From the sequence record NC_073087.1: a stretch of 44,825 bases of DNA. The stretch is one strand, 5' to 3'. The DNA is from Escherichia phage Gluttony_ev152. The notes beneath the pieces were generated by a model that ran no database searches, was not told the origin of the DNA, and saw nothing but the letters and a program-made list of their open reading frames with translations. Both the position numbers and the translations under genes were made by a program. Below, piece by piece: positions 12,584 to 34,679 of this stretch; the stretch's first letter is position 1, and each line of letters opens with the position of its first letter.

Positions 12584-12913
12584 ATGAATGTAAACGACGC
12601 AATCGAAATGTTAACGAAGACTGTTTGCAGTGAGACAAGCCGGTCATGGGCATACACCGATGCCGTGGGGGCTGTGTTATTTGAAATCGAACGACTGCGG
12701 CTTACCGAAAAAGAATTGCGCGCCAGGCTGGAACTACTCAACGGTACAGCAGCAAGCAAGCTGCAAAAACACAATGAAGAAATGGAAGAATACAAAAAGC
12801 AGGTTATCCGTTTGCGCGCCGAGGGCAAATCTTGGGCGATGATTGCCGAGTTGACCGGAATTAATCAGAGCACAGTGCGCTCCTGGGTACGCAATAATAA
12901 AACTTCTAAGTAA
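12584..12913 (+). CDS. helix-turn-helix DNA-binding protein (putative regulator)
   Basis: C-terminal GKSWAMIAELTGINQSTVRSWV resembles resolvase/sigma-region-4-type HTH; first rightward gene after divergent promoter. Confidence 0.65.
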   Translation: MNVNDAIEMLTKTVCSETSRSWAYTDAVGAVLFEIERLRLTEKELRARLELLNGTAASKLQKHNEEMEEYKKQVIRLRAEGKSWAMIAELTGINQSTVRSWVRNNKTSK

Positions 12914-12923
12914 GGCCACGGCA

Positions 12924-15188
12924 ATGAGCTTGATTAAATTCGCTGTAACAAAACCCGCTAAAAAAGGCGAAAAAGCCAGGGCGGAAAACTTCCAGATGAC
13001 GACCGATGAGTTTTTCGAATTTATCAAAGATGCGAAAGAAATATCCTCGGTGCATATCAACAAGACGGAAGATAAAGCCGAGTATGCGCGCCGCAAGCGT
13101 AAGGCCGATGGCATCGTGGCGTATACCAGTGACGGATTGCGCCGCAAGACCAGTGCCGTGGACCGCTCGATCCTGTTCTTCGATATTGACCGCACCGACA
13201 CCCGCACCCTGCGCCGCTGCCGTAAGGCGTTCATCGACGCGGGTCTGGAACACGTATTTCACACCACCACCGGCGACCGCCACCCGCTGAAGGGCGGCAC
13301 GCGTTGCGCCCGTTTCCTGGTGCTCACTGACAAGCCTGTACCGGCTGAAGACCTGGGCCGCGTCCAGTATGCACTATTACACCAACTGGGCCTGTCAGAT
13401 GTGGACTTCGACGATTGCACGAAAGACACTAACCGCCTTATGTACCTACCACACCAGCAGTCTGTTATTAAGTGCCACTATGGCAAGCGCGCCCGCGTCC
13501 GTCGTCTGCTCCGCCTGGCTGATAAGCTGGGAGTGGAAAAAGAGGAAGTACGCCGCGAGCTTACCCAGGGCGACGACGCAGTGGCAGACGGCATTCTGGA
13601 CTGGTGCTTCCAGGCCGGATTCGAGGAGTTATCTTCTGGTCGCGGTTATGAAGTGCCGTGCCCGAACGAACATCTGCACAGCGGCGAAGGGTCGACGGCT
13701 ATCATGGTCAAGGATGGCGAGATCCGTTTCAAGTGTATGCACACCGGCAACGAGTGTTGCTCGGAGCTAAATAGACACCAGCACCTTGCGCTACGTCTCA
13801 TCGGGATACCGGACCACCTGAACGTCGAACCGCACAACATGTCACGTAAGCAAATCGCCGCCATCCTCCCAGGGCTGGACGACGAGGAAGTCGAATCCTT
13901 ATATGAACATATTGTTGATGCGGTTGGCGACGGCGAAGAATACGGCGTGTGCACCGATGCGGATCTGGATAACGAGCCGGTTGCGCTGTTCAGTAAGCAC
14001 GACCCGATTATCGAGGGGTTGGTTAACTTTAAATCAACCTGGTATATGGCGGGTGAGTCGAACATCGGTAAATCGTTCTACGTGCTGGGGCAAATGGGTG
14101 CGGTTGCCGCGGGGATTCCGTTCGGTGGCGCGAAGGTCGTCCAGTCTCATTGCTTCTATTTCGACGCGGAAGGTGGCGAAGCCTCTAACCAGCGCAAAGA
14201 AGCATTGCAGATTAAATATGAGCACGACCTGGACAAGCTGCACATTATCGATCTGCAATCACGCGGCTGGGATATCACCAGCAAATCCGGCTTGCGTGAA
14301 GTTATCAGCTTCATCAACCGCACCGCTAACGGCGAGCCGGTTGGCCTGGTGGCGTTCGACTCACTCAACCAGACTGTTGCGCTGCGGTCCGCCGATGCAA
14401 AACCGTTCGACGAGAATAACGCCAGCGATATGGGTGAAGTGGTCAAAGCGCTGAAGGCCATTGCGGAAAATACAGGCGGCAGTGCGGGCGTCATCCACCA
14501 CCCGGCGAAGGGTGCAAACGGCAGCAGATCTCCCCGTGGGTCCGGCGCGCTGCATGGCGCTGTCGATTCTGCGTTCTTCCTGGAGCAACCGGACGACAAT
14601 CAGCCGGGCCAATTGAACCTGTATCACGAAAAGGCACGTAACGGCATCAAGCAAGCGCCGCGCGGCTTCGTCCTGCTCAAGTGCAAGGTTAAGGTGGATC
14701 TCCGCAAGTCCGAAGCGTTCGAATCACACCAGTCCACCAGCACCGGGCCTGACTTCGGCGACGTGGTTGCCGGTTGGGACGTCAAGCCAATTGCATCCAC
14801 GCCACGCGACGAGACTCTTTATCTCGTACCGGTCGCCCTGGCACCGTTCGCCATCGAACAGGCGAAGGCCGCGGGCAAGGCCGCAGTTAAGGATGAGAAC
14901 GCCGCAGGACCGCGCAATGAAAAAGAGAAAGTGCTTTATGCGGCACTGGAAAAACTGATGGAAGATAACCCGGACCATACCGGATTCAGTAAATCGGCAA
15001 TTGTCCGCCAGGCGGGATTGGCAAAAGGTGGCACATCGACGAAGGCAATAGACGATATGGTCGAGCGCGGCGTGCTTGGGTTTTACACAGACCCACACAC
15101 CGGGGCCATCTATGGGTCGTCTAATATCGTCATCAAAACGAATATACCCATCACGCTTTCGGCTACCGATGACGACCTGAAAGATTAA
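12924..15188 (+). CDS. primase/helicase (RecA-like P-loop ATPase domain)
   Basis: 754 aa; Walker A GESNIGKS; IHHPAKG motif typical of RepA/AAA_25-type helicase domains; N-terminal region may be the primase part. Confidence 0.8.
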   Translation: MSLIKFAVTKPAKKGEKARAENFQMTTDEFFEFIKDAKEISSVHINKTEDKAEYARRKRKADGIVAYTSDGLRRKTSAVDRSILFFDIDRTDTRTLRRCRKAFIDAGLEHVFHTTTGDRHPLKGGTRCARFLVLTDKPVPAEDLGRVQYALLHQLGLSDVDFDDCTKDTNRLMYLPHQQSVIKCHYGKRARVRRLLRLADKLGVEKEEVRRELTQGDDAVADGILDWCFQAGFEELSSGRGYEVPCPNEHLHSGEGSTAIMVKDGEIRFKCMHTGNECCSELNRHQHLALRLIGIPDHLNVEPHNMSRKQIAAILPGLDDEEVESLYEHIVDAVGDGEEYGVCTDADLDNEPVALFSKHDPIIEGLVNFKSTWYMAGESNIGKSFYVLGQMGAVAAGIPFGGAKVVQSHCFYFDAEGGEASNQRKEALQIKYEHDLDKLHIIDLQSRGWDITSKSGLREVISFINRTANGEPVGLVAFDSLNQTVALRSADAKPFDENNASDMGEVVKALKAIAENTGGSAGVIHHPAKGANGSRSPRGSGALHGAVDSAFFLEQPDDNQPGQLNLYHEKARNGIKQAPRGFVLLKCKVKVDLRKSEAFESHQSTSTGPDFGDVVAGWDVKPIASTPRDETLYLVPVALAPFAIEQAKAAGKAAVKDENAAGPRNEKEKVLYAALEKLMEDNPDHTGFSKSAIVRQAGLAKGGTSTKAIDDMVERGVLGFYTDPHTGAIYGSSNIVIKTNIPITLSATDDDLKD

Positions 15189-15265
15189 ATCCTGCGCGCA
15201 TTGGTTGCCGATATGGGAATTCCCATATCGCTAAAAGGTTAAATTTTGCGCGCATTGGTTGCCAT
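15189..15265. promoter_or_regulatory. direct repeat - 20-bp perfect palindrome - direct repeat, candidate protein-binding or origin element
   Basis: TGCGCGCATTGGTTGCC twice flanking GATATGGGAATTCCCATATC, immediately after primase/helicase stop. Confidence 0.4.
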
Positions 15266-15348
15266 TTTGAGTGTTTTTATCAGGTCGTATTGGTTGCCGT
15301 GTAGTGTGAATATAGTGAATAGTTATGCAGTTTTGTTGCATAAAGTAA

Positions 15349-15510
15349 GCGGGACAAAAAGCGGGACAAACAAGGGGCGGGACAAAGCGGGACAGCACCC
15401 CCGTCCCGCCCCTGATGGCGCGGCCTGGAGAGGAGCGGGACAGGCGGGACAACCCCCAGTCTTTCAGACTAGACGGGGGTCAATGGCCCCCCTCGTCTGA
15501 GACTGAATAA
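15349..15510 (+). repeat. noncoding cassette A: GCGGGACA direct-repeat array plus conserved 53-nt element
   Basis: Six direct and one inverted copy of GCGGGACA(A/G) within about 100 bp, followed by AGTCTTTCAGACTAGACGGGGGTCAATGGCCCCCCTCGTCTGAGACTGAATAA (15458-15510). Confidence 0.7.
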
Positions 15511-30959: not shown

Positions 30960-30974
30960 TTGGAGAATACTACA

Positions 30975-31337
30975 ATGGCTAAAGCACCACTCTTCACACT
31001 TGACCCTAAGCCAACCTTTAAGCTGCCGATTGAGATCCCGCGCCCTGGTGAGAACGAACCAGGCAAGATGACTTTCACCGTCCGCCACCGCCCTATCGAC
31101 GAATTTTCGCAGACCATGCAGGACACCGAACGCAAGTTGTCGGAATATGACGACAATGACCCGGACGGCTTTAACGTTATGGTCGAGGCCATCATGCACG
31201 TCGCAGAAGGCTGGAATCTGCCGGACGAATTTAACGCGGAGAACGTCCGCCGCCTGGTGGTCAACTATCCACGCGCGTTCGGTGTGTTCCACACGTCGTA
31301 CTATCTCGAACTGATGGGGTTGCGTGAAAAAAACTAA
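30975..31337 (+). CDS. tail assembly chaperone G
   Basis: ATG at 30975 with GGAG RBS (track ORF begins at a TTG at 30960); acidic protein between major tail and tape measure; slippery heptamer at 3' end. Confidence 0.65.
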   Translation: MAKAPLFTLDPKPTFKLPIEIPRPGENEPGKMTFTVRHRPIDEFSQTMQDTERKLSEYDDNDPDGFNVMVEAIMHVAEGWNLPDEFNAENVRRLVVNYPRAFGVFHTSYYLELMGLREKN

Positions 31338-31651
31338 TTGAGGCGGCGCGACGCTTTTATGGGCCGCCGCCACCCTCCGAAGATTTAGCCGCAAGTTTAT
31401 GGGGTGCGACCCCCGAAGATGTTTGTCCGCCTGTTGCGCTGTGGCCTGACAACGCGAAGATAGTCGCAGTCTTCACAGATTGCGCTACACAATGGCGCAC
31501 CGGATTTGGTGGCGCATACGGCATCGACTACGGCGTGCTGGAGTGGTTATTTAAGATGCACGGTATCGAAAACGAGCAGCGCGCGTTTAAAGATATCAAG
31601 CTAATGGAACGAATCGCGCTTGATGAGATGGCGCAGCAGAACCCCGCATAA
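30975..31651 (+). CDS. tail assembly chaperone GT, predicted -1 programmed frameshift product
   Basis: Heptamer A_AAA_AAC at 31328-31334 just before the G stop; the -1 frame is open for 105 codons from 31334 (LIEAARRFYGPPPP...) to TAA at 31649-31651 with no ATG start; matches lambda G/GT paradigm. Confidence 0.5.
31328..31334 (+). other. -1 ribosomal frameshift slippery heptamer A_AAA_AAC
   Basis: Located 1 codon before G stop; downstream -1 frame open without start codon. Confidence 0.5.
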
Positions 31652-31655
31652 TGAA

Positions 31656-31973
31656 GCGGGACAAAACGGGACGTCCCGTTTTGTCCCACCCCTGTGAAAC
31701 TGCATACCTACTCACTTCCATTGCATAATCTAAAAGCGGGACAAGCGGGACGTCCCGTTTTGTCCCACCCCACAAAAGTGCATACGTATTCGGTTTTCGT
31801 GCATAAAACAAACGGGACAAAAAGCGGGACAAACACTAGGCGGGACAAAGCGGGACAGCACCCCGTCCCCGCCAGTGCTGCCGCGGTTTTCAGCCGATCG
31901 GGACAGCGGGACAGCACCCCAGTCTTTCAGACTAGACGGGGGTCAACGGCCCCCCTCGTCTGAGACTGAATAA
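31656..31973 (+). repeat. noncoding cassette B: GGGACA repeat array with two 30-bp palindromes plus conserved 53-nt element
   Basis: Perfect palindrome GGGACAAAACGGGACGTCCCGTTTTGTCCC (31658-31687), near-copy at 31738-31766, about 10 direct GCGGGACA copies, then the same 53-nt element as cassette A with one substitution (31921-31973). Confidence 0.7.
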
Positions 31974-32036
31974 GGTTTGTTTTGAAATCGCTGATACAAT
32001 ATCCATCGGCAACTGCATAAAAAAGGGGACTGCATA

Positions 32037-34679
32037 ATGGCAGATCAGGCAGCAGGCATCACGCTAAAGGCTGATGTTGCACAAATCAGAACGGCAAATA
32101 CTGTGCTGGACTCCTTCGCACAGAAATCCGAGAACACAGAAAACAAGGTTAAGAAATTAAACGACACCCTCGGCAAATCCAAAAAGGTGACGAGTGACGC
32201 CGCGGGCGGAATGGAAAAGCTGGCAAACGAATCGCAGCGCGCCGCCGATGGCATGACGAAACAGGAGCGACTCGCCAACAGGTTAGGCATGTCGACTAAA
32301 AACCTGGGCTTTGCCTCGCGTAACGCCGCATTCCAGCTACAGGATATTGCGGTAACGCTTGAGATGGGGATGCCGGTTCACCGCGTCATGCTTCAGCAGT
32401 TACCGCAGCTAACTGGGGCGTTCGGTGGACTGGGTAACACGCTGCGTTATGTTGCGGGCTTCCTCGGCCCAGTAGGGATCGGCCTCGCCGCCGTAACGGC
32501 AACGTTAGGCGTGGGCGTGGCAATTACGTCCCGCGCAGAGAACCAGGTCGCCGCGCTTAACAAGACGCTGGCGCTGTCAGGTAACATTTCCGGCCTCACT
32601 GCAAACCAGATCCTGGTGTTATCCGAGAACGCCGAGCGCATGGGCGGATCATTCCGCAAGACGCGTGACACAATCCAGGCGCTGGCGGCGGCGGGTGTGA
32701 AAGCGGGTGGTGACTTCGGCGCATTGGCTAAGGTAGTTAATGACTTTGCGAAGGTGTCCAGCCAGCCGATCGAGGATGTGGTAGCGGCGGTGGCGAAGCT
32801 GTCAACCGACCCCGTTGGCGGACTGCGTGCGCTGGCGGATAAGTATCACGTCGTAAACGAAGCGCAGATCCAGCAGGTGCAGTCACTAGTGACGGCTGGT
32901 CGCGAAACCGAAGCGGTGGCGCTGGCTAACAAAACAGCCGCAGCGTCGTTTACCACTATGACCAATGAGATCAAGTCCAACATGGGTACGCTTGAGCGGT
33001 CGATGAACGTCGTTACATCGGCAGCTAAATCTATGTGGGATGCCATCCTGGATGTCGGGCGCGCGCAGTCCTCGAATGAGTCAGAGATGAAAGCGCGTGA
33101 ATCATTGCAGCGACTGACCACGGCTTACTATGCCGAGATGAAAGCGGTAAACGCTGCCGGTGGGGTGATGACCGAAGCGCAGAAAGCGCGTATTAACATG
33201 CTTTACAGCGAACTGGTAGCCCAGGAAAAAGTAGTGGCGTCGCTCACCCTGCGCAACCGTGCAGAGCGAGACAACGCAAGTGCCGCTGACGAAGCAGCAA
33301 AGGCGAACGAAGAGGCAAACCGCACCGCCCGCGACCGCGCCGCGTTCGAGAAGGAGTACGCAACCAACGCGAAGAGGCGCGCCGACGAGATCGCCCGCCT
33401 CAATTTGCTTAATAAGCGCGGCGTTATTGATGAGAAAGAACTAGCCGAGGCGGTTAAGCAGGTCAACGAGCGTTACAAAGACCCGGCACCGAAGAAGGCC
33501 GCCGCTGTTCGAGTCGATGCCGGGCTGAAAATGCTGGAGGTCGCACGGAGCGAACTGGCACAGCTTCGAGAATCAGGCAAGCAGATCGAGGCCAACTCTT
33601 CGACGCAGACCAGAACGCAACGCGCGCAAGCGGCCCTTAACAAGCTGATTGCCGACAACGAGCAGTTAATCGCTGCGAGCAAAGAAAGGGCGCTGACGGC
33701 AGCAGAGAAGCAGCAATTAGTCGAGTTCGGGCGCGTGAAGGAAGTCCGCGAGCAGATCGTCGAAGAAGCCAAATTGCTGGACGCGAAAGAGAAGCAGGTC
33801 AAGGCGCACGCGCAGATCGACGCCTTCGTTAAGAACCAGAACGCCGAGCTAAAAGCCACCGCGGCGGGCTATGCGCTTTCCACTCGCGAAGCGGCTAACC
33901 TGCGCGAAGAATTGCAGCTAATTGACCGCCTTAAGCGGGTGGGCGCTAGTGATACCGATATTGATCTGGCGGTGTCTAAACTGCGCGAAGTGCAGGAAGC
34001 ACAGACCGGTGCTAACGCCTCACTATGGGATGGATTCAGCCGTGGGCTTAAGGATAGCGTGGATGAAATGGGTAACGGCTATACGCAGATGGCGTCACTC
34101 ACAAAATTCACGTTCGGCGCTATGCAGGACACGATGAACGAGTTTTTCGAGACTGGCAAGCTGAACGCAAAGGATATGGTTAAGTCCATCCTGAGCGAAT
34201 TAATCAAGCTGGCTACCTCGCAGGCGTTCAAGTCCATCGTTAGCGCTTTCGGTGGCGACGGCGGCAAAAACGGATTGTTCGGCGCTATCTTCTCCGGCCT
34301 CACTAAGAATGCGGACGGCGGAGCGTACTCAGGGGGCAATCTCGCGGCCTATTCAGGGAAAGTGGTAAGCCAGCCTACCTTTTTCAGTTATGGCGTCCAG
34401 GCGTTCGCTAAGGGCGCAGGATTGATGGGCGAGGCTGGTCCTGAGGCCATCATGCCACTGAAGCGCGGGCCGGACGGGAAACTGGGCGTTGCCGCGTCTG
34501 GCGCAGGCGGAGGTATGGTCGTGACGACTAACGTTTACACGGGGACCGGTAAAACGGATACCAGTGTCAGCGGGCCGGACCCCCGTACTGCGCAGGCGTT
34601 CGGCAAGCAAATCACCGAGGCGGTGAAGGCCGAGATCGTGAAGGCGACGAAACCGGGTGGTGTACTTTACAAACGATGA
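32037..34679 (+). CDS. tail tape measure protein
   Basis: 880 aa, long alpha-helical Ala/Gln/Lys-rich central region, Gly-rich C-terminal part; canonical position. Confidence 0.85.
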   Translation: MADQAAGITLKADVAQIRTANTVLDSFAQKSENTENKVKKLNDTLGKSKKVTSDAAGGMEKLANESQRAADGMTKQERLANRLGMSTKNLGFASRNAAFQLQDIAVTLEMGMPVHRVMLQQLPQLTGAFGGLGNTLRYVAGFLGPVGIGLAAVTATLGVGVAITSRAENQVAALNKTLALSGNISGLTANQILVLSENAERMGGSFRKTRDTIQALAAAGVKAGGDFGALAKVVNDFAKVSSQPIEDVVAAVAKLSTDPVGGLRALADKYHVVNEAQIQQVQSLVTAGRETEAVALANKTAAASFTTMTNEIKSNMGTLERSMNVVTSAAKSMWDAILDVGRAQSSNESEMKARESLQRLTTAYYAEMKAVNAAGGVMTEAQKARINMLYSELVAQEKVVASLTLRNRAERDNASAADEAAKANEEANRTARDRAAFEKEYATNAKRRADEIARLNLLNKRGVIDEKELAEAVKQVNERYKDPAPKKAAAVRVDAGLKMLEVARSELAQLRESGKQIEANSSTQTRTQRAQAALNKLIADNEQLIAASKERALTAAEKQQLVEFGRVKEVREQIVEEAKLLDAKEKQVKAHAQIDAFVKNQNAELKATAAGYALSTREAANLREELQLIDRLKRVGASDTDIDLAVSKLREVQEAQTGANASLWDGFSRGLKDSVDEMGNGYTQMASLTKFTFGAMQDTMNEFFETGKLNAKDMVKSILSELIKLATSQAFKSIVSAFGGDGGKNGLFGAIFSGLTKNADGGAYSGGNLAAYSGKVVSQPTFFSYGVQAFAKGAGLMGEAGPEAIMPLKRGPDGKLGVAASGAGGGMVVTTNVYTGTGKTDTSVSGPDPRTAQAFGKQITEAVKAEIVKATKPGGVLYKR

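Follow-up and report, generated by a model that had tools for sequence, protein, structure and literature searches.

Why does the tail operon of Escherichia phage Gluttony_ev152 hold a 385-bp non-coding gap, dense with palindromes and short repeats, between the G/GT chaperone gene and the tape measure gene? The DNA analyzed here (NC_073087.1; 44,825 nucleotides, referred to as a whole as the window) comprises almost all of a Dhillonvirus genome, that of an HK578/SO-1-like virulent Escherichia coli siphovirus, as judged by BLAST against GenBank phages. A reading of the window made without database searches (the sequence-only reading) had singled out this gap for its length and for two palindromes built from GGGAC units. 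We term the gap cassette B (31652..32036, plus strand) and find that it contains a paralog of a second non-coding element, cassette A, located just downstream of the helicase-primase gene. We consider it probable that cassette B is a duplicated and expanded copy of the phage's replication-origin cassette, and that it serves as a second origin or as an initiator-binding site.

The gap runs from the GT stop codon, which ends at 31651, to the tape measure start codon at 32037. Upstream are the G chaperone (30960-31337, plus strand; Phage_TAC_4 in Pfam) and the T extension of GT (31337-31651, plus strand; DUF1799), reached by a -1 frameshift after the slippery sequence GAAAAAAA; downstream, on the same strand, is the gene for a tape measure protein of 880 aa. 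As had been supposed, so long a gap is unusual at this junction. Among relatives of the tape measure gene in other phage groups the upstream gap is mostly -50 to +40 nt, and the lengths of the few that reach 270 nt may be inflated by GT frameshifts that were not accounted for. In Cornellvirus VSiA the cassette is present only after the helicase-primase gene, and little space separates the GT gene from the tape measure gene. A protein-coding gene with a conserved reading frame was looked for in the gap of 19 Dhillonvirus variants and is absent: the longest open reading frames vary in frame, strand and length, and 3 of the 19 variants have none longer than 47 aa. The “hypothetical proteins” annotated in the gap in several records are therefore unsupported. 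No tRNA or tmRNA was found.

Cassette B opens with a tetrad of pentamers, two GGGAC facing two GTCCC head to head (iteron tetrad 1, 31658..31687), which forms the perfect 30-bp palindrome GGGACAAAACGGGACGTCCCGTTTTGTCCC (halves GGGACAAAACGGGAC and GTCCCGTTTTGTCCC) described by the sequence-only reading. As a hairpin of single-stranded DNA it is predicted to fold with -15.4 kcal/mol (z score -5.4). It is followed by a spacer of 64% A+T (31693-31736) with the bipartite box TGCATAC-N14-TGCATAA in a 21-bp register (31701..31728, plus strand) and, at an offset of 79-80 bp, by iteron tetrad 2 (31738..31766), a 29-bp near-palindrome (GGGACAAGCGGGAC joined to GTCCCGTTTTGTCCC) that corresponds to the near-copy reported about 80 bp downstream. 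The stretch that resembles cassette A begins with a second TGCATAC-N14-TGCATAA box (31779..31806, plus strand; 66% A+T) and continues on the plus strand with an array of four direct CGGGACA iterons (at 31813, 31825, 31841, and 31851) and one inverted GTCCC (31865-31869), the whole array spanning 31813..31869, then with two more direct CGGGACA iterons at 31899 and 31907 (31899..31913) and with a long imperfect hairpin module of 49 nt, CAGTCTTTCAGACTAGACGGGGGTCAACGGCCCCCCTCGTCTGAGACTG (31920..31968; fold z score -3.3). A leader of 63% A+T (31969..32036, plus strand), with two further TGCATAA boxes (32014 and 32031) and the tape measure ribosome-binding site, completes the gap.

Fifteen GGGAC/GTCCC pentamers are thus present within 31658-31913. 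Across the window CGGGACA occurs 18 times (6.2 expected), and fourteen of these copies fall into two clusters, 8 of them in 31657-31913 and 6 in 15350-15451. Bipartite boxes of the form TGNATA-N15-TGCATAA, in the 21-bp register, are found three times against an expectation of 0.04 (15316-15343, 31701-31728, and 31779-31806; see also 32014-32037), one before each iteron group, and they are set in spacers of 63-70% A+T, compared to 45% for the genome. The sequence-only reading had placed a TGCATAA box before each palindrome. This holds for tetrad 2, which is preceded by the box at 31701-31728, but not for tetrad 1, where the corresponding letters read CGCATAA and overlap the GT stop codon.

Positions 31777-31973 align with positions 15314-15510 at 84% identity over 198 bp, and cassette B thus holds, after its palindromes, a paralog of cassette A of ~175 bp, as had been claimed. 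Cassette A (15316..15505, plus strand), which we presume to be the primary copy, starts ~130 bp after the helicase-primase stop codon and 16.5 kb from cassette B in the tail operon. It comprises a box of the form TGAATAGTTATGCA-N7-TGCATAA (within 15316-15343), direct CGGGACA iterons at 15350, 15362, 15378, 15388, 15436, and 15445, an inverted GTCCC at 15403, and a hairpin at 15457-15505, all on the plus strand. The layout of the array at 31813..31869 is common to cassette A and, with other iterons, to Cornellvirus and further lineages. The TGAATAGTTATGCA leader has a weak likeness to the target of ArgR (ARG-box), with one site at ≤2 mismatches; the window holds 4 hits against 1.25 expected, which is not significant, and this candidate was set aside.

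The region of cassette B is 99% identical in phages jat, Oekolampad, and TheodorHerzl (BLAST, GenBank phages), and the cassette was recovered in all 157 Dhillonvirus records (151 with ≥80% coverage). Within the genus, GGGAC/GTCCC pentamers are 94% conserved versus 84% for the sequence between them (Mann-Whitney p = 2e-5), which substantiates the earlier proposal that the GGGAC unit is a meaningful element. Spacing, on the other hand, varies by 1-2 bp. The left-arm spacer of tetrad 1 measures 4, 5 or 6 nt depending on the phage, the perfect 30-bp symmetry is limited to Gluttony_ev152 and a few others (jat, SO-1, WFI), and tetrad 2 is often degenerate, with one pentamer lost in several relatives. 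With conserved pentamers at variable distances, the perfect palindrome is incidental, and the pattern fits protein sites on duplex DNA, unlike that of a hairpin that needs pairing. Of the two possibilities raised for the palindromes, a dimeric DNA-binding protein or a cruciform, a protein bound to head-to-head GGGAC is consequently the best reading, whereas the palindrome that a cruciform would use is not conserved. In the alignments it is the 3' module (31920-31968), and not the palindromes, that keeps a hairpin structure: its columns are 97% identical, and nearly all variation is in the apical loop.

Could these structures act in RNA instead? An element within the late polycistronic transcript, with stem-loops that terminate, attenuate, process (RNase III/E) or stabilize the mRNA and so set the ratio of GT to tape measure, is in our view quite unlikely. 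The plus strand of the whole gap folds strongly (-155 kcal/mol, z score -7), the hairpin module combines conserved stems with variable loops, its outer stems differ by lineage yet remain complementary, and its G-rich arm is always 5', making it strand-asymmetric; moreover, palindrome 1 is annotated as a terminator in HK578 and WFI. However, on the plus strand neither the palindromes nor the 3' hairpin are followed by a T-run, and scanning returned sites on the non-coding minus strand only, so that the hairpins would lack a U-tract and the palindromes do not qualify as intrinsic terminators, a point that the sequence-only reading had made correctly. Rfam 15 gave no match at the gathering threshold across the whole window, and below threshold the gap yielded only miRNA-like noise (18-24 bits versus cut-offs of 79-90). 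The palindromes are not kept as hairpins, given their differing spacer lengths and the degeneracy of tetrad 2, while the pentamers persist, and the stems of the 3' module are invariant in Dhillonvirus and so provide no covariation within the genus. Furthermore, in each lineage the primary copy follows the helicase-primase gene, and its repeat changes with the lineage of that protein, which is unexpected for an RNA stabilizer.

The presence of two dispersed copies per genome could also suggest a selfish or neutral repeat (a miniature inverted-repeat transposable element-like insertion, a recombination hotspot or a pac/cos signal) that landed in the tail operon. Mobile elements frequently hold palindromes, and three GenBank records end within cassette B. 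Nonetheless, we regard this as very unlikely: the cassette lacks terminal inverted repeats and target duplications, a search of 5,426 complete E. coli genomes and 72,556 PLSDB plasmids matched no copy of it, it is far from the terminase genes, and all 157 genomes keep it at these two positions, its pentamers and hairpin being under purifying selection. The three records, LR990702 (Maverick), MZ234029 (CHD5UKE2), and OX460974 (Kente), end at three different positions in the region matching 31652-31963. These ends are most likely assembly breaks at the repeat shared by cassettes A and B and not physical genome ends, and a pac/cos signal was rejected on the same ground. Two other records, MG065648 (“Campylobacter phage A144”) and one labeled “Acinetobacter”, are ~96% identical to the Dhillonvirus region of Gluttony_ev152, and their labels probably reflect mislabeling or contamination.

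The sequence-only reading made no link between the cassette and the helicase-primase gene or replication. The genomic company that the cassette keeps was surveyed in relatives of the helicase-primase selected without reference to any motif (37-83% identity). In every lineage sampled, the stretch after the helicase-primase stop codon is non-coding, and a 7-mer repeated 3-7 times follows the gene in 12 of 18 IMG/VR loci as well as in L182-L185, L263, L264, and VSiA. Overall, the linkage between cassette and helicase-primase extends to >20 related loci, in addition to 13 loci of unrelated AAA_25 helicases. At least eight different repeats are used across the helicase-primase lineages: CGGGACA in Dhillonvirus and a relative at 68% identity, GGGGAGA in Cornellvirus, CTCGCAA/TTGCGAG in L183, L185, and the L407 group, TCCGACA in L419, L425, and L432, CGGACAA in L421 and L427, AGGGATA in L420, GGGGATG in L433, and TTCCGCACA in L264. 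These repeats occupy a homologous frame that consists of a GTGAATAGTTATGCA leader (often doubled), two to four direct repeats, one or two copies of the repeat in inverted orientation, a spacer, one to three further repeats, a long imperfect hairpin, TTATTCAT, and CACGGCAGCA. Since the GTGAATAGTTATGCA leader is conserved where the iterons differ, it is probably either a promoter or the binding site of a conserved or host factor. The hairpin, too, keeps its architecture (outer stem, internal loop, and an apical stem of a G-run and a C-run, with the G-run always 5'; -21 to -27 kcal/mol) in seven other lineages with different outer stems, among them CAGTC/GACTG, ATCCTC/GAGGAT, GTCTCC/GGAGAT, and ATCATCTA/TAGATGAT; these hairpins were compared through separate folds, as MAFFT gave no common register for formal pair counting.

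CGGGACA arrays were also sought in IMG/VR without regard to genes, using the pattern CGGGACA-N2-9-CGGGACA, which returned at least 120 loci. Requiring ≥5 CGGGAC/GTCCCG within 300 bp left 32 arrays among the matches listed, to which the following counts refer. Thirteen of the 32 directly border, at its 3' end, a gene encoding a RepA-type AAA_25 helicase (Fisher p = 1.3e-6), and the primase modules fused to these helicases vary (Prim-Pol with or without PriCT, Toprim plus zinc ribbon, DnaB-N). Five more are located inside the linker of O-like or DnaD-like initiator genes, an arrangement known from the lambda origin. In several arrays, direct and inverted sets flank an A+T-rich, IHF-like center. 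Thus, GGGAC arrays as a class accompany replication initiators. The five arrays within O-like or DnaD-like genes (L036 1722-1861, L046 7494-7650, L101 2258-2420, L102 3269-3420, and L124 4473-4650) encode the peptide ..GTAAGQQRDK....

Which protein, then, might recognize the iterons? The gene preceding cassette A (12924..15188, plus strand) encodes a protein of 754 aa with a RepA-type AAA_25 core (Pfam) and a predicted C-terminal winged helix. It belongs to PHROG 3228 (“replicative helicase-primase”) and has a weak PDB match to RSF1010 RepA (1g8y). No primase domain was detected with Pfam, and motif reading alone points to a putative AEP-like (archaeo-eukaryotic primase) N-terminus. The winged-helix domain (14919..15134, plus strand; ~aa 666-737) is predicted by AlphaFold2 from the last 168 residues with 33 homologs, at a pLDDT (per-residue confidence) of ~80-88 for the order H-b-H-H-b-b over aa 666-737. 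A search with the C-terminal 121 aa alone returned two fragments only. The first residues of helix 3 are common within an iteron group and different between groups (GGT-STK or GGT-NTT, GGD-RYK, SGN-YKK or SAH-YGK, GGR-RRP, GGGNxRRR, GGN-RRP, GGG-RYA, and GGR-YSD), a correspondence that is correlative and involves few independent groups. On the strength of the structural model and this correspondence, we propose the winged helix as the candidate iteron binder. The protein ends in a conserved acidic tail (15165-15185; ..ATDDDLKD), of which D751 and L752 are invariant in 25 homologs. It resembles the acidic tails of T7 gp4 and SSB, which contact partner proteins.

A small helix-turn-helix gene (12584-12913) also lies nearby, but its product is a less likely iteron binder; the dispersed motif ATTGGTTGC would be its more natural target. 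This motif has 14-15 exact copies in the window, almost all intergenic and in both orientations (984, 2882, 2899, 5856, 12384, 15200, 15254, 15289, 15571, 15661, 15692, 16226, 26057, 26071, and 42167); six copies flank cassette A and none is found in cassette B. Related phages have cognate, lineage-specific variants (GCAACCAAC, GTTGGCAGC, GTTGGCCGC, and TGTTGGCTG). The motif is probably an operator or promoter element, perhaps bound by the small helix-turn-helix protein. Between two of its copies, just past the helicase-primase stop codon, is a perfect 22-bp palindrome (15209-15230; GATATGGGAATTCCCATATC with flanks) that is not followed by a T-run.

A second cassette among late genes was detected elsewhere as well. 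In IMGVR_UViG_2700989012_000001, whose helicase-primase and tape measure are 45% and 38% identical to those of the window, the 220 bp immediately upstream of the tape measure gene are paralogous to the region after the helicase-primase gene (88%, 52 nt, E 4e-14). They contain the repeats proper to this phage (TCGCCCCG and GCCCGCCCC), together with an IHF-like TTATTGATTTA and a hairpin, GACGGGGG...CCCCTCGTC. In the L183/L407 lineage, the second cassette begins ~20 nt past a Mu-F-like head gene and precedes the scaffold and capsid genes (85%, 78 nt, E 5e-22). It carries a tetrad of two CTCGCAA facing two TTGCGAG, and four of seven contigs have two exact copies of a 26-mer taken from it; its sites are L557 3540, L564 4603, L560 5669, and L183 22100-22290. 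By this sequence comparison, a late-gene second cassette occurs in at least two other lineages and is no accident of Dhillonvirus. Paralogs share their repeat within a genome and differ between genomes, which implies that a single lineage-specific trans-acting factor would serve both copies.

We suggest the following mechanism. The GGGAC pentamers would be iterons, recognized on double-stranded DNA by the C-terminal winged helix of the helicase-primase, so that one protein acts as an initiator-helicase in the manner of P4 alpha. The head-to-head tetrads (two direct and two inverted pentamers) and the direct arrays would gather several subunits beside the meltable spacers of 63-70% A+T, and the long 3' hairpin may form on the exposed single strand and signal loading or priming, much as the ssi hairpins do at the IncQ oriV. 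Cassette A, just past the helicase-primase gene, would be the ancestral primary origin, and cassette B either a second origin or an initiator-bound roadblock or enhancer; as a roadblock, it could aid the switch from theta to concatemer-producing replication, as has been proposed for SPP1 oriR. Early and replication genes run leftward from ~12.4 kb, and the rightward order is the small helix-turn-helix gene, the helicase-primase gene, small genes, lysis, packaging, head, and tail. Given that cassette A is near this divergence of leftward and rightward transcription, forks starting there would be mostly co-directional with the genes. In addition, HK578 mutants that escape the replication-sensing OLD defense map to the helicase-primase and to the promoter of its operon (bioRxiv 10.64898/2026.07.10.737580), which is consistent, if indirectly, with a role in replication.

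Several observations weigh against an origin function. No experimental mapping of a Dhillonvirus origin was found in the literature, and GC and AT skew reflect the direction of genes and transcription, mark neither cassette, and are uninformative. At 40-70 bp the A+T-rich spacers are short, and their A+T content is just 63-70%; clear A+T-rich or IHF-like centers are present in some other lineages only. No repeat array was detected after the helicase-primase gene in the L414/415/417/422 group, L265, Kagunavirus or Jerseyvirus. CGGGACA also occurs beside distant AAA_25 helicases whose C-terminal or winged-helix sequences look unrelated, and a helicase with 43% identity uses GGGGAGA, so that a different protein could bind the iterons. 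Finally, all copies of the cassette are co-oriented with transcription and located at operon or gene boundaries, and the box before each iteron group also fits a weak sigma-70 geometry (TGCATA-17-CATAAT).

These last two observations are shared with a reading in which the cassettes exert transcriptional control, the boxes being weak promoters and the GGGAC units operator or activator sites that time late expression, with cassette A starting the late region and cassette B boosting or gating the tape measure and distal tail genes. The boxes match a -35/17/-10 arrangement, with CATAAT or CATAAA 4-12 nt before the first iteron, cassette A is surrounded by the promoter- or operator-like ATTGGTTGC boxes, and the equivalent region of Jerseyvirus holds a promoter-like TTGCAT...TATAGT site. 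Still, a consensus scan recovered no sigma-70-like promoter at the boxes (≤8 of 12 matches), the CGGGACA arrays of unrelated contigs track replication initiator genes and no class of downstream gene, and arrays inside O-like initiator genes are a hallmark of origins. The conserved hairpin would be left without a role. We therefore consider transcriptional control unlikely as the full account, although promoters are normal in origins and the two models partly overlap. A sigma-54 promoter was likewise considered for the TGCATAA boxes and rejected, as the GG-N10-GC spacing is mismatched (by hand).

The origin interpretation also gains from comparison with characterized replicons. In phage SPP1, oriL and oriR have similar repeats and an A+T-rich DNA-unwinding element, gp38 binds to each of them, and oriR splits the block of late structural genes; fork collision with gp38 at oriR is the proposed trigger of the theta-to-sigma switch (PMC6316719; PMC3485210). 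Like SPP1, Gluttony_ev152 is a ~44-kb siphovirus with two paralogous regions of direct repeats and A+T-rich DNA, one at a replication gene and one among late structural genes, and the L407-type second cassette even occupies the slot of oriR, after a Mu-F-like head gene. The cassettes have no sequence homology with the SPP1 origins, however, and nothing in SPP1 corresponds to the conserved long hairpin or to the head-to-head tetrads. Its oriL is inside gene 38, whereas cassette A follows the helicase-primase gene, and its initiator is a separate organizer that needs the loader gp39 and the DnaB-type helicase gp40, whereas the putative binder here is the helicase-primase itself.

Satellite phage P4 provides a precedent in which primase, helicase, and a DNA-binding winged helix at the C-terminus share a single polypeptide, alpha. 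This protein recognizes the short repeat TGTTCACC at both ori and crr, two cis regions that lie apart from each other. P4 crr is ~4.5 kb from ori in an 11.6-kb replicon and, unlike cassette B, is not in a tail operon; the P4 alpha helicase is of the superfamily 3 (SF3)/D5 type, as opposed to the RecA-fold AAA_25 of the Dhillonvirus helicase-primase, and no sequence similarity to the P4 ori/crr-alpha system was detected. The RepA helicase of IncQ plasmid RSF1010 belongs to the same AAA_25 family as the helicase-primase core. The IncQ oriV combines iterons, G+C-rich and A+T-rich segments, and ~40-nt hairpins that act as priming signals, with RepB' starting on ssiA and ssiB (PMC8567376). Iteron binding, helicase, and primase are distributed there over separate proteins (RepC, RepA, and RepB'), and the two ssi hairpins are on opposite strands, while each Dhillonvirus cassette has one hairpin, in the same orientation; by analogy, the latter might be a priming signal. 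The lambda origin likewise has short repeats, a winged-helix-type initiator, and an adjacent A+T-rich region, and CGGGACA arrays are found inside O-like genes of other contigs. By contrast, Gluttony_ev152 has its repeats outside the putative initiator gene, lacks an O/P-type loader system, and carries two copies.

The core origins of SV40 and papillomaviruses contain four pentamers in two inverted pairs, a perfect palindrome beside an A+T tract, which nucleate head-to-head assembly of the initiator-helicase. These viruses of eukaryotes use an SF3 helicase, their DNA-binding domain is unrelated, and their likeness to the tetrads is one of grammar only. As a tentative generalization, AAA_25 helicase-primases with a winged helix may form a widespread, self-contained class of initiator-helicases acting on head-to-head tetrads of GGAnA-type pentamers (compare SV40 T-antigen and papillomavirus E1), and the late-operon copy, as a second origin or a programmed fork barrier, could set the time of the concatemer switch and couple it to late-gene or tape measure expression.

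Parts of these elements have been annotated before. The record of Sodalis phage SO-1 (NC_013600) gives repeat regions “A” and “B” at the two cassettes and states their mutual similarity as well as a possible function, and jat has a repeat_region, besides the terminator annotated at the first palindrome of HK578 and WFI. No description of the cassettes was found in the literature on the repeats or origin of Dhillonvirus, HK578, SO-1, SSL-2009a, and EP23. What is new here is a family-wide cis element with lineage-specific iterons, a winged-helix candidate binder, a recurrent second copy among late genes, and a conserved hairpin.

Dhillonviruses are common E. coli phages that include members of the BASEL collection, HK578, and SECphi18, and are widely used in work on anti-phage defense. 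If the cassettes are origins, annotators should be aware that the “hypothetical proteins” and “terminators” of the gap are probably artifacts, and the cassettes would offer exact targets for work on how a one-protein primase-helicase-initiator starts replication. This could explain why OLD and Lamassu, which sense replication intermediates or hairpins, select escape mutations in the helicase-primase. It would also mean that the two-origin design of SPP1 recurs in siphoviruses of Gram-negative bacteria, with the second copy placed among the structural genes.

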